The position numbers were made by a program, and so were the translations under genes. From IMG/VR virus record IMGVR_UViG_2880395615_000008: a stretch of 64,000 nucleotides of DNA; one strand, given 5' to 3'. Shown one piece after another: positions 31,153-31,922 of the stretch. The DNA comes from a virus. Its lineage: Duplodnaviria > Heunggongvirae > Uroviricota > Caudoviricetes. Position 1 is the first letter of the stretch, and each line of letters opens with the position of its first letter. Under the pieces are notes generated by a model. The model made no database searches. It saw only the letters and a program-made list of their open reading frames with translations, and was not told where the DNA came from.

Positions 31153-31922
31153 ATGGAAACCGTATTGCATGCACTGAAAGCGATGGGTAAAGCCAATTCT
31201 GTTGAACTGGCGGCGCGGCTTGATATCAGCCGTGAAGAAGTTCTCAACGAACTGTGGGAACTCAAAAAAATAGCGTTGTTGATAAAACGGGTCACACCTG
31301 GTTTCTGGCTGGCGAAGGTGAATCCGGGGTAACCGAAGAGCGGCCAGTAAAATCTGAAGCACAGGATATGCTGACCAGGGAGGTCGAACAAAAAGTTACC
31401 GCAGACATGATGATTGAGTTTATCGGTCAGGATGGGGCTAAAACGTGTGAGGAACTGGCGGGTAAGTTCGGTGTCAGTACTCGCAAGGTTGCTTCCGCGC
31501 TGGCGGTGGTAACCGCAACGGGGCGGCTGGCACGCGTTAATCAGAACGGTAAATTTCGTTACTGCATGCCGGGCGATAATTTACCAGCAGAGCCGAAAGC
31601 CGCGCTGGTAACGGAAAGTGATGGTAAGGCCTTTCCTCAGCCAGCAGGTGCTGCGTTACCAGTCCGGGAAGCCGCAACACAGGAAGAAAATAAAACAGAA
31701 ACTGTGGCGGTCACAGTGCAGTCACAGCCGTTGTTCACCAGAAAACATCCGGATGGTCTGATTTTACCATCGCTGCATGTGGCTAACCGCGAGCTGCGCC
31801 GGGCAAAAGGTCAGGTTCAGAAGTGGGAGCGTGTCTGCGCCGCGCTGCGGGAGCTGAACAAGCACCGGGATATTGTTCGGCAGATTGTCGATTCATCCGG
31901 TCGTATTGTGTCGGAAAAGTGA
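31153..31922 (+). CDS. Two-winged-helix protein split over two frames at an A7 run (frameshifted gene or recoding site)
   Basis: ORF1 31153..31332 (frame 1) and ORF2 31254..31922 (frame 0) overlap; A7 at 31264-31270; joined product reads ...[19 protein letters not shown]... Confidence 0.45.

Follow-up and report, generated by a model that had tools for sequence, protein, structure and literature searches.

Two open reading frames lie within positions 31153..31922 on the plus strand of the window, the 64-kb stretch of viral DNA that we analysed. ORF1 runs from an ATG at 31153 to a TAA at 31330–31332 and encodes 59 aa in frame 1, while ORF2 runs from a GTG at 31254 to a TGA ending at 31922 and encodes 222 aa in frame 3, the −1 frame with respect to ORF1. 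The two overlap, and the overlap contains AAAAAAA at 31264–31270. An earlier note on this DNA had pointed out this arrangement and held that joining the ORFs gives one protein. The coordinates are confirmed, and insertion of one A at the run produces a continuous 256-aa ORF that matches Pfam DUF1627 (PF07789) at 292.3 bits (cutoff 28.1; E = 1e-87) over profile positions 1–155 of 155. In a tblastn search, the intact protein gives two collinear matches to the window, residues 1–45 in frame 1 and residues 38–256 in frame 3, with the junction at the run. The collinear matches, together with the DUF1627 match of the joined protein, indicate a real break in one gene and not a chance overlap. Runs of A7/T7 or longer number 25 in the window; the A run by itself is unremarkable, and what counts is that it falls where the frame breaks in a protein with a known domain. 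Two opposite-strand ORFs, at 31134–31391 and 31150–31362, were considered and found no support.

The broken gene retains one good translation start signal by inspection, a GGAGG Shine-Dalgarno sequence at 31140..31144 (+), 8 nt upstream of the ORF1 ATG. Residues 1–39 of ORF1 are native and cover the putative first helix-turn-helix, while residues 40–59 are out of frame. The native coding sequence of ORF2 extends from 31270 to the stop codon, with the AAT codon for N40 (31269–31271) straddling the end of the run, and would specify a wing and linker, a second helix-turn-helix, the DUF1627 domain and a C-terminal helix. The downstream part lacks translation initiation signals of its own. By inspection, there is no Shine-Dalgarno sequence before the GTG at 31254, and the internal ATG at 31368, which lies 36 nt past the ORF1 stop, has only an AGGA, 1 nt upstream. 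A promoter scan of the plus strand found no promoter-like site inside the gene, the nearest being at 30759–30786.

The Pfam DUF1627 domain corresponds to residues 91–245 of the joined protein and lies wholly inside ORF2. The joined protein also matches PHROG phrog_630 (E = 5e-132), and phage records annotate homologues as 'putative YdaW family protein'. Both the profile match and the synteny agree with the DUF1627/YdaW family, and the single ORF of about 250–256 aa is what the 1-nt deletion has removed; by these signs, the window can be said to hold a pseudogene copy of a family member. A PDB sequence search with the protein returned nothing below E = 0.05. Matches to HTH families fall below threshold, at residues 4–50 and 87–133 of the joined protein. 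An AlphaFold2 model, built from 13 close homologues (pLDDT 47.8, pTM 0.26) and used only for its secondary-structure layout, predicts with low confidence three-helix units at residues 2–39 and 84–123, linkers that are disordered and, at 206–255, a long helix at the C-terminus; the available alignment is shallow, almost all of the 120 listed homologues being more than 90% identical. The two helix-turn-helix-like segments proposed earlier are plausible from this layout, but sub-threshold matches and a pLDDT of 48 keep the assignment tentative. The run encodes K38–K39, which the model places where helix three of the first three-helix unit ends.

Several database entries correspond to parts of this protein. 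The PHROGs phrog_16668 (a 59-aa profile), phrog_11856 (160 aa) and phrog_29124 (72 aa) match consecutive pieces of the joined protein, and the length of phrog_16668 is exactly that of the frameshift fragment. Separate PHROGs, at least phrog_16668 and phrog_11856, appear to have been built from the halves of frameshifted copies. A further DUF1627 variant of 277 aa in the protein collection (P0094) has an internal tandem duplication of about 39 residues over the wing region of the second HTH, and it is also truncated at the C-terminus.

The gene lies in the early-right (replication) operon of a lambdoid prophage of E. coli O157 type, integrated at ompW. Upstream lie two intact plus-strand genes, an O-like replication initiator (HTH_36 in Pfam; 29423..30376, coordinates transferred from locus L001) and a DnaC/IstB-like ATPase, the replication loader (Pfam IstB_IS21; 30383..31123), which relatives annotate as 'ATP-binding protein' WP_000790456.1. 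Downstream lies a DUF977 gene (31938..32333, +). The frameshift need not be polar on the DUF977 gene, because the latter has its own GGAGG at 31928–31932. Further elements, transferred from a 99.8%-identical prophage adjoining an ompW fragment in strain 61_150228, are an integrase, an excisionase, a RecE-like exonuclease, dicB, a repressor, cro-like genes, hokD, RusA, Q, lysis genes and head genes. Rfam places DicF at 26905–26956 (−), sok at 34070–34244 (+) and STnc100 at 39153–39353 (+), all where expected. E. coli genomes often carry several DUF1627 copies, from 1 to 9 places per genome and 7–8 in the O157:H7 genomes listed, and such redundancy may buffer loss of the gene.

Elsewhere in the window, the isrC sRNA is found twice, at 552–674 (−) and 12806–12928 (−), at 150.2 bits each (Rfam) and 12.25 kb apart, which hints at tandem or neighbouring prophage segments upstream. 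At window positions 20873–21314, compared with 61_150228 (L003, 9883–17354), the window is without an ISEc8 copy and a segment of about 4.6 kb that holds nleG, espM1, an IS630 remnant and a DUF1076 gene; in 61_150228, both sit just outside the integrase end of the prophage. In a 21-kb alignment with the same strain, 37 of 50 differences cluster within about 850 nt at window positions 41360–42206, in the DUF1378/DUF826/holin region, suggesting a small recombination patch.

The intact form of the gene (771 nt, 256 aa) is found in the set of 5,426 complete E. coli genomes that we searched for orthologues. The best 33 listed matches cover 861 of 861 nt at 99.9% identity with a single 1-nt gap, and all annotate one 'DUF1627 domain-containing protein'. 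Specifically, the comparison with FRIK944 (WP_000450888.1) shows 0 mismatches and 1 gap in 861 nt, the sole difference being A8 versus A7 at 31264..31270, and the translation of the A8 coding sequence equals the joined protein exactly. In the intact protein, the run supplies codons K38–K39 and the first base of N40. For the window's allele, in which TAG follows the run, we counted exact A7 and A8 mers only: the 83-mer with A8 occurs in 43 complete genomes and the 82-mer with A7 in 0. The comparison with orthologues that the earlier note had suggested, for a continuous ORF with A6 or A8, is answered by the A8 single ORF in these 43 genomes. In addition, the intact protein (P0001) is present on at least 1000 contigs in a large protein collection. 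Relative to the nearest complete genome, 61_150228, the deletion in the tract is the only indel over window positions 21314–41360 (about 20 kb) and the only difference of any kind between 27656 and 35500 (about 8 kb). Near-identical, uninterrupted orthologues thus differ from the window by one repeat unit exactly at the break, as in a homopolymer-slippage pseudogene, and the lesion is best read as recent and single.

The A7 state is carried by other sequences as well. The exact 59-aa product of ORF1 is encoded in seven other assemblies and has been deposited as ANE66958.1 and GAB9038794.1. Five of the seven are 100% identical to the window, including A7, over whole contigs of 1.3–4.0 kb (GCA_000747445.1, GCA_054591695.1 and three Logan assemblies of public sequencing runs); the remaining two are a noisy assembly (L004) and a diverged prophage (L007). 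A one-off sequencing error is unlikely because other assemblies carry the exact 59-aa product and five of them are identical to the window. The view that the true genome has A8 and that sequencing or assembly erred at the homopolymer gains something from the proneness of homopolymers to error on some platforms, from the absence of the exact A7 allele from RefSeq complete genomes and from the noise of one carrier of the 59-aa ORF, but the five identical assemblies come from different projects, and the window has no other indel relative to its nearest relative over about 20 kb. We therefore reject an error on the strength of five independent, identical assemblies and regard it as most improbable. 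The noisy assembly (GCA_033660325.1, contig JAWVHR010000014.1, 285641–291820) shows 16 gap openings over 6.2 kb when aligned with the window, its neighbour genes are fragmented, and it is unfit as evidence for homopolymer states.

The same loss recurs in other alleles of the gene. A second allele, about 90% identical to that of the window and with TGG in place of TAG after the run, has the same A7 in many O157:H7 genomes. Exact-mer counts for the TGG allele, made as the best place per genome in a heavily clonal, O157:H7-dominated set of complete genomes, are 287 for A7, 164 for A8 and 1 for A9; the 287 genomes with A7 are mostly labelled O157:H7. Xuzhou21 (A7) and PV15-279 (A8), both O157:H7, differ by a single base in 3082 nt, at the run. 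Their allele is 10% diverged from that of the window, and the A7 loss in this pair is an event independent of that in the window. The single A9 found among complete genomes is in NZ_CP058682.2 (strain MBT-5), at 2508524–2509295 (L194, 826–1597). PGAP marks both the A7 and the A9 forms of the TGG allele as 'frameshifted', and the A9 of MBT-5 means that +1 changes also occur at the run. When the loci of two 59-aa fragments were fetched and compared together with the other A7 loci, A7 was found in at least six alleles that are mutually 86–96% identical. Furthermore, at least 10 distinct 59-aa fragments in the protein collection share the junction ELKK|[I/M]ALLIKRV.

The first approximately 180 nt of the gene are nearly invariant in all alleles. 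L007 is identical to the window over the first 181 nt and diverges beyond, so we do not count it as a third independent event, as its A7 could have come by recombination. Recombination, and not only new slippage, may likewise have spread some of the A7 segments. The O157:H7 A7 allele has not decayed further, having 0 mismatches to the A8 copy, which is compatible with retained function and equally with a very recent origin.

To sample alleles independently of gene integrity, scans of IMG/VR were anchored on the tract itself, so that the sample is unbiased towards intact genes. Alleles with an A run number 98 loci (82 A8, 16 A7, no A6 or A9), and 14 of the 16 A7 loci represent the O157 clone. 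The gene is complete in 81 of these loci and intact in 69; ten copies are broken at the A run and two at a G6-to-G7 run near codon 142. Alleles in which a G interrupts the run (AAAAGAAAT) number at least 120 loci; among the matches listed, the gene is complete in 105, intact in 103 and broken in 2. Taken over these tract-anchored scans, 12 of 14 disruptions among the matches listed fall at the A8 or G6 homopolymer. With most of the breaks in homopolymers and few in alleles that lack the run, the pattern suits a dispensable gene with a mutational hot spot better than strong selection for loss. Among diverged homologues in IMG/VR, the site is readable in 77 of 80 and reads A8 in 28, AAAAGAAAT in 39, AAAGAAAAT in 5 and AAAAGAAAAG in 5. 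The run is therefore interrupted by G in 49 of the 77, about half of the family, and those alleles are intact; the A run is one allele state and not a conserved feature.

The second homopolymer is broken in two different alleles, L104 and L128 of IMG/VR, at about codon 142, in a segment homologous to window positions about 31575–31585. The two read TCGGGGGGG and CCGGGGGGG (G7), compared with G6 in the intact allele, and the protein is truncated at 142 aa. In the allele of the window, the G6-equivalent run is interrupted (CCGGGCGAT).

These counts bear on one of the causes that the earlier note had offered, a phase-variable (contingency) switch in which the A run is kept so that reversible slippage between A7, A8 and A9 turns the gene on and off. 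A7, A8 and A9 do all occur at the run, in several allele backgrounds (at least six for A7), and within O157:H7 there are A7 and A8 versions of 3-kb prophage segments that are otherwise identical. However, the exact A7 82-mer of the TGG allele is common to 287 complete genomes, and among the 15 A8 matches listed, of 164, only one strain, PV15-279, is labelled O157:H7. In a contingency locus the tract is kept by selection across the family, and here about half of the family alleles are intact with AAAAGAAAT or a similar interruption, so the run is not maintained. Moreover, eight A's in mismatch-repair-proficient E. coli form a shorter tract than those of well-characterised contingency loci. The switch is thus weakly supported at best and, in our estimate, decidedly unlikely; a slow mutational hot spot fits the pattern of run lengths better.

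A further cause offered earlier, slippage used for expression, would make A7 a purposeful site of transcriptional slippage or −1 ribosomal frameshifting that delivers the short and the full-length product in a set ratio. By sequence logic, the wild-type protein would be regained exactly from a transcript with one extra A or through a −1 slip at A-AAA with the rare ATA codon next, and slippage on A runs is documented in E. coli (PMC5574713, PMC1088944). The signals at the run argue against it. The zero frame reads CTC AAA AAA ATA (C AAA AAA or A AAA ATA) and provides no in-frame canonical slippery heptamer of the form X XXY YYZ. No stimulatory RNA structure was detected, as neither the 60 nor the 100 nt downstream of the run (31271–31330 and 31271–31370; z = 0.19 and −0.06) nor the segment 31240–31340 folds better than shuffled sequence. 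The two-ORF layout that programmed −1 frameshifting would be expected to conserve is replaced by single ORFs in 69 of 81 A-run alleles and, among the matches listed, in 103 of 105 interrupted alleles; relatives are in frame either with A8 or without the run. Transcriptional slippage, for its part, calls for a long A/T run of conserved length, typically nine or more, and the run has seven A's here, eight in intact alleles and a G in 49 of the 77 readable diverged homologues. In E. coli, insertions made during transcription cluster at A/T runs, and their frequency climbs exponentially as the run lengthens, up to 9 (PMC5574713), so that only rare +1A transcripts are expected from seven A's; evident selection against slippage begins near nine A/T (PMC1088944), above the seven found here. 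In the literature on DUF1627 and YdaW, we found no paper on frameshifting at the gene. With run and layout unconserved and both recoding signals lacking, the proposal is not supported, and we hold programmed recoding to be extremely unlikely.

A functional split gene would keep both pieces useful, the 59-aa HTH fragment together with a C-terminal product of 184 aa (from the ATG at 31368) or 222 aa (from the GTG at 31254). Such a split could draw on gene callers and databases, which enter both pieces as proteins (Q8X456, a 'DNA-binding protein', and PHROGs with 59 and 160 residues), on the DUF1627 domain being complete within ORF2 and on the undecayed state of the widespread O157 A7 allele. Against it stand the GTG without a Shine-Dalgarno sequence and the ATG with an AGGA at 1-nt spacing. 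Moreover, the stretch that follows directly on the recognition helix in the first HTH, the expected place of a wing, is replaced by unrelated residues, and most family members found are single ORFs. A split gene of this kind is very unlikely.

Taken together, the locus is, with a probability of about 0.8, an ordinary replication-slippage frameshift pseudogene at a mutational hot spot, and its allele null or strongly hypomorphic. The frameshift split that the earlier note described is upheld by the A8 single-ORF orthologues and, among the three causes that it listed, so is the pseudogene. In the ancestral gene, an in-frame A8 (CTC AAA AAA AAT, Leu-Lys-Lys-Asn) would have lost one A by an event of the replication-slippage type. 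By its sequence, the gene is now read from the strong Shine-Dalgarno sequence and the ATG at 31153 for 39 native residues, up to and including helix three of the first helix-turn-helix, and then for 20 out-of-frame residues to a stop at 31330, and the remaining 217 codons, being without a ribosome-binding site of their own, would be essentially untranslated. Trace amounts of wild-type protein may persist where RNA polymerase adds an A in the run or, alternatively, where tRNA-Lys slips by −1 on A-AAA with the rare ATA codon in the A site; either event would restore the exact wild-type sequence. The gene may even yield a useful level of full-length protein, or of the 184-aa C-terminal product by reinitiation at the ATG at 31368. 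In general, homopolymer runs appear to be the main way of breaking genes of the DUF1627/YdaW family, which would explain the same lesion in several alleles. Selection favouring the off state could also account for its repeated appearance in many backgrounds.

A lesion of this kind is already known. In hundreds of genomes, RefSeq already lists a frameshifted pseudogene with this type of lesion at this site, and GenBank contains the window's own allele. The closest case is the 'frameshifted' DUF1627 pseudogene of O157:H7 (Xuzhou21 CDCO157_RS11420), which belongs to the same family, shows the same A8-to-A7 loss at the same codons, likewise lies between the DnaC-like gene and DUF977, and has a truncated product of the same 59-aa type; its N-terminal fragment is UniProt Q8X456, 'DNA-binding protein'. 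It differs from the locus of the window in being an approximately 90% identical allele, with TGG and not TAG, in a different prophage and in 287 complete genomes, whereas the allele of the window is rare, occurring in 0 complete RefSeq genomes and in only a few assemblies of the draft or Logan type. The locus also resembles the 'pseudo-pseudogenes' that Baranov et al. 2005 (PMC1088944) described as a class that transcriptional slippage could restore. In these, a 1-nt change within an A run disrupts a gene that other E. coli strains have intact, and an extra A in the mRNA would bring back the ORF; their runs are 9A/9T, and with a run of 7 slippage should be much rarer in the window. The programmed sites of IS elements and dnaX (A AAA AAG / A AAA AAC, A9) are alike in having an A-rich run at a junction of ORFs that overlap in −1, but the window has no in-frame X XXY YYZ, stimulatory structure or conserved arrangement, and its homologues are in frame. 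The Rac prophage gene ydaW of E. coli K-12 is linked to the gene of the window by the family name in phage annotations only. It is listed among predicted transcription factors, and its sequence length varies between strains, for example between MG1655 and O55:H7 (PMC9308461).

In a more far-reaching reading, the A8 run, and G6 in some alleles, would switch DUF1627/YdaW prophage genes on and off slowly or serve as a preferred path to their adaptive inactivation, tuning an anti-defence or replication-module function of the prophage in lysogens, with trace full-length protein supplied by slippage. If true, it would explain why the off state has been fixed repeatedly, including in much of the O157:H7 lineage. 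Its anti-defence link would come from one screen, in which ydaW was picked up as blocking the retron toxin RcaT (bioRxiv 10.1101/2020.06.22.160242). We consider this reading decidedly unlikely; were it true, phage-defence research would have a moderate interest in a slow switch that acts on a possible anti-defence gene.

As an ordinary pseudogene, the locus has little weight for biology and some for annotation, where the 59-aa 'DNA-binding protein' and the 160–222-aa 'DUF1627' database fragments come from the two halves of a single broken gene. Within O157:H7-type prophages, lineages might be told apart by the A7/A8 state, and the gene offers a worked example of how homopolymer runs dominate the inactivating mutations of a dispensable prophage gene.
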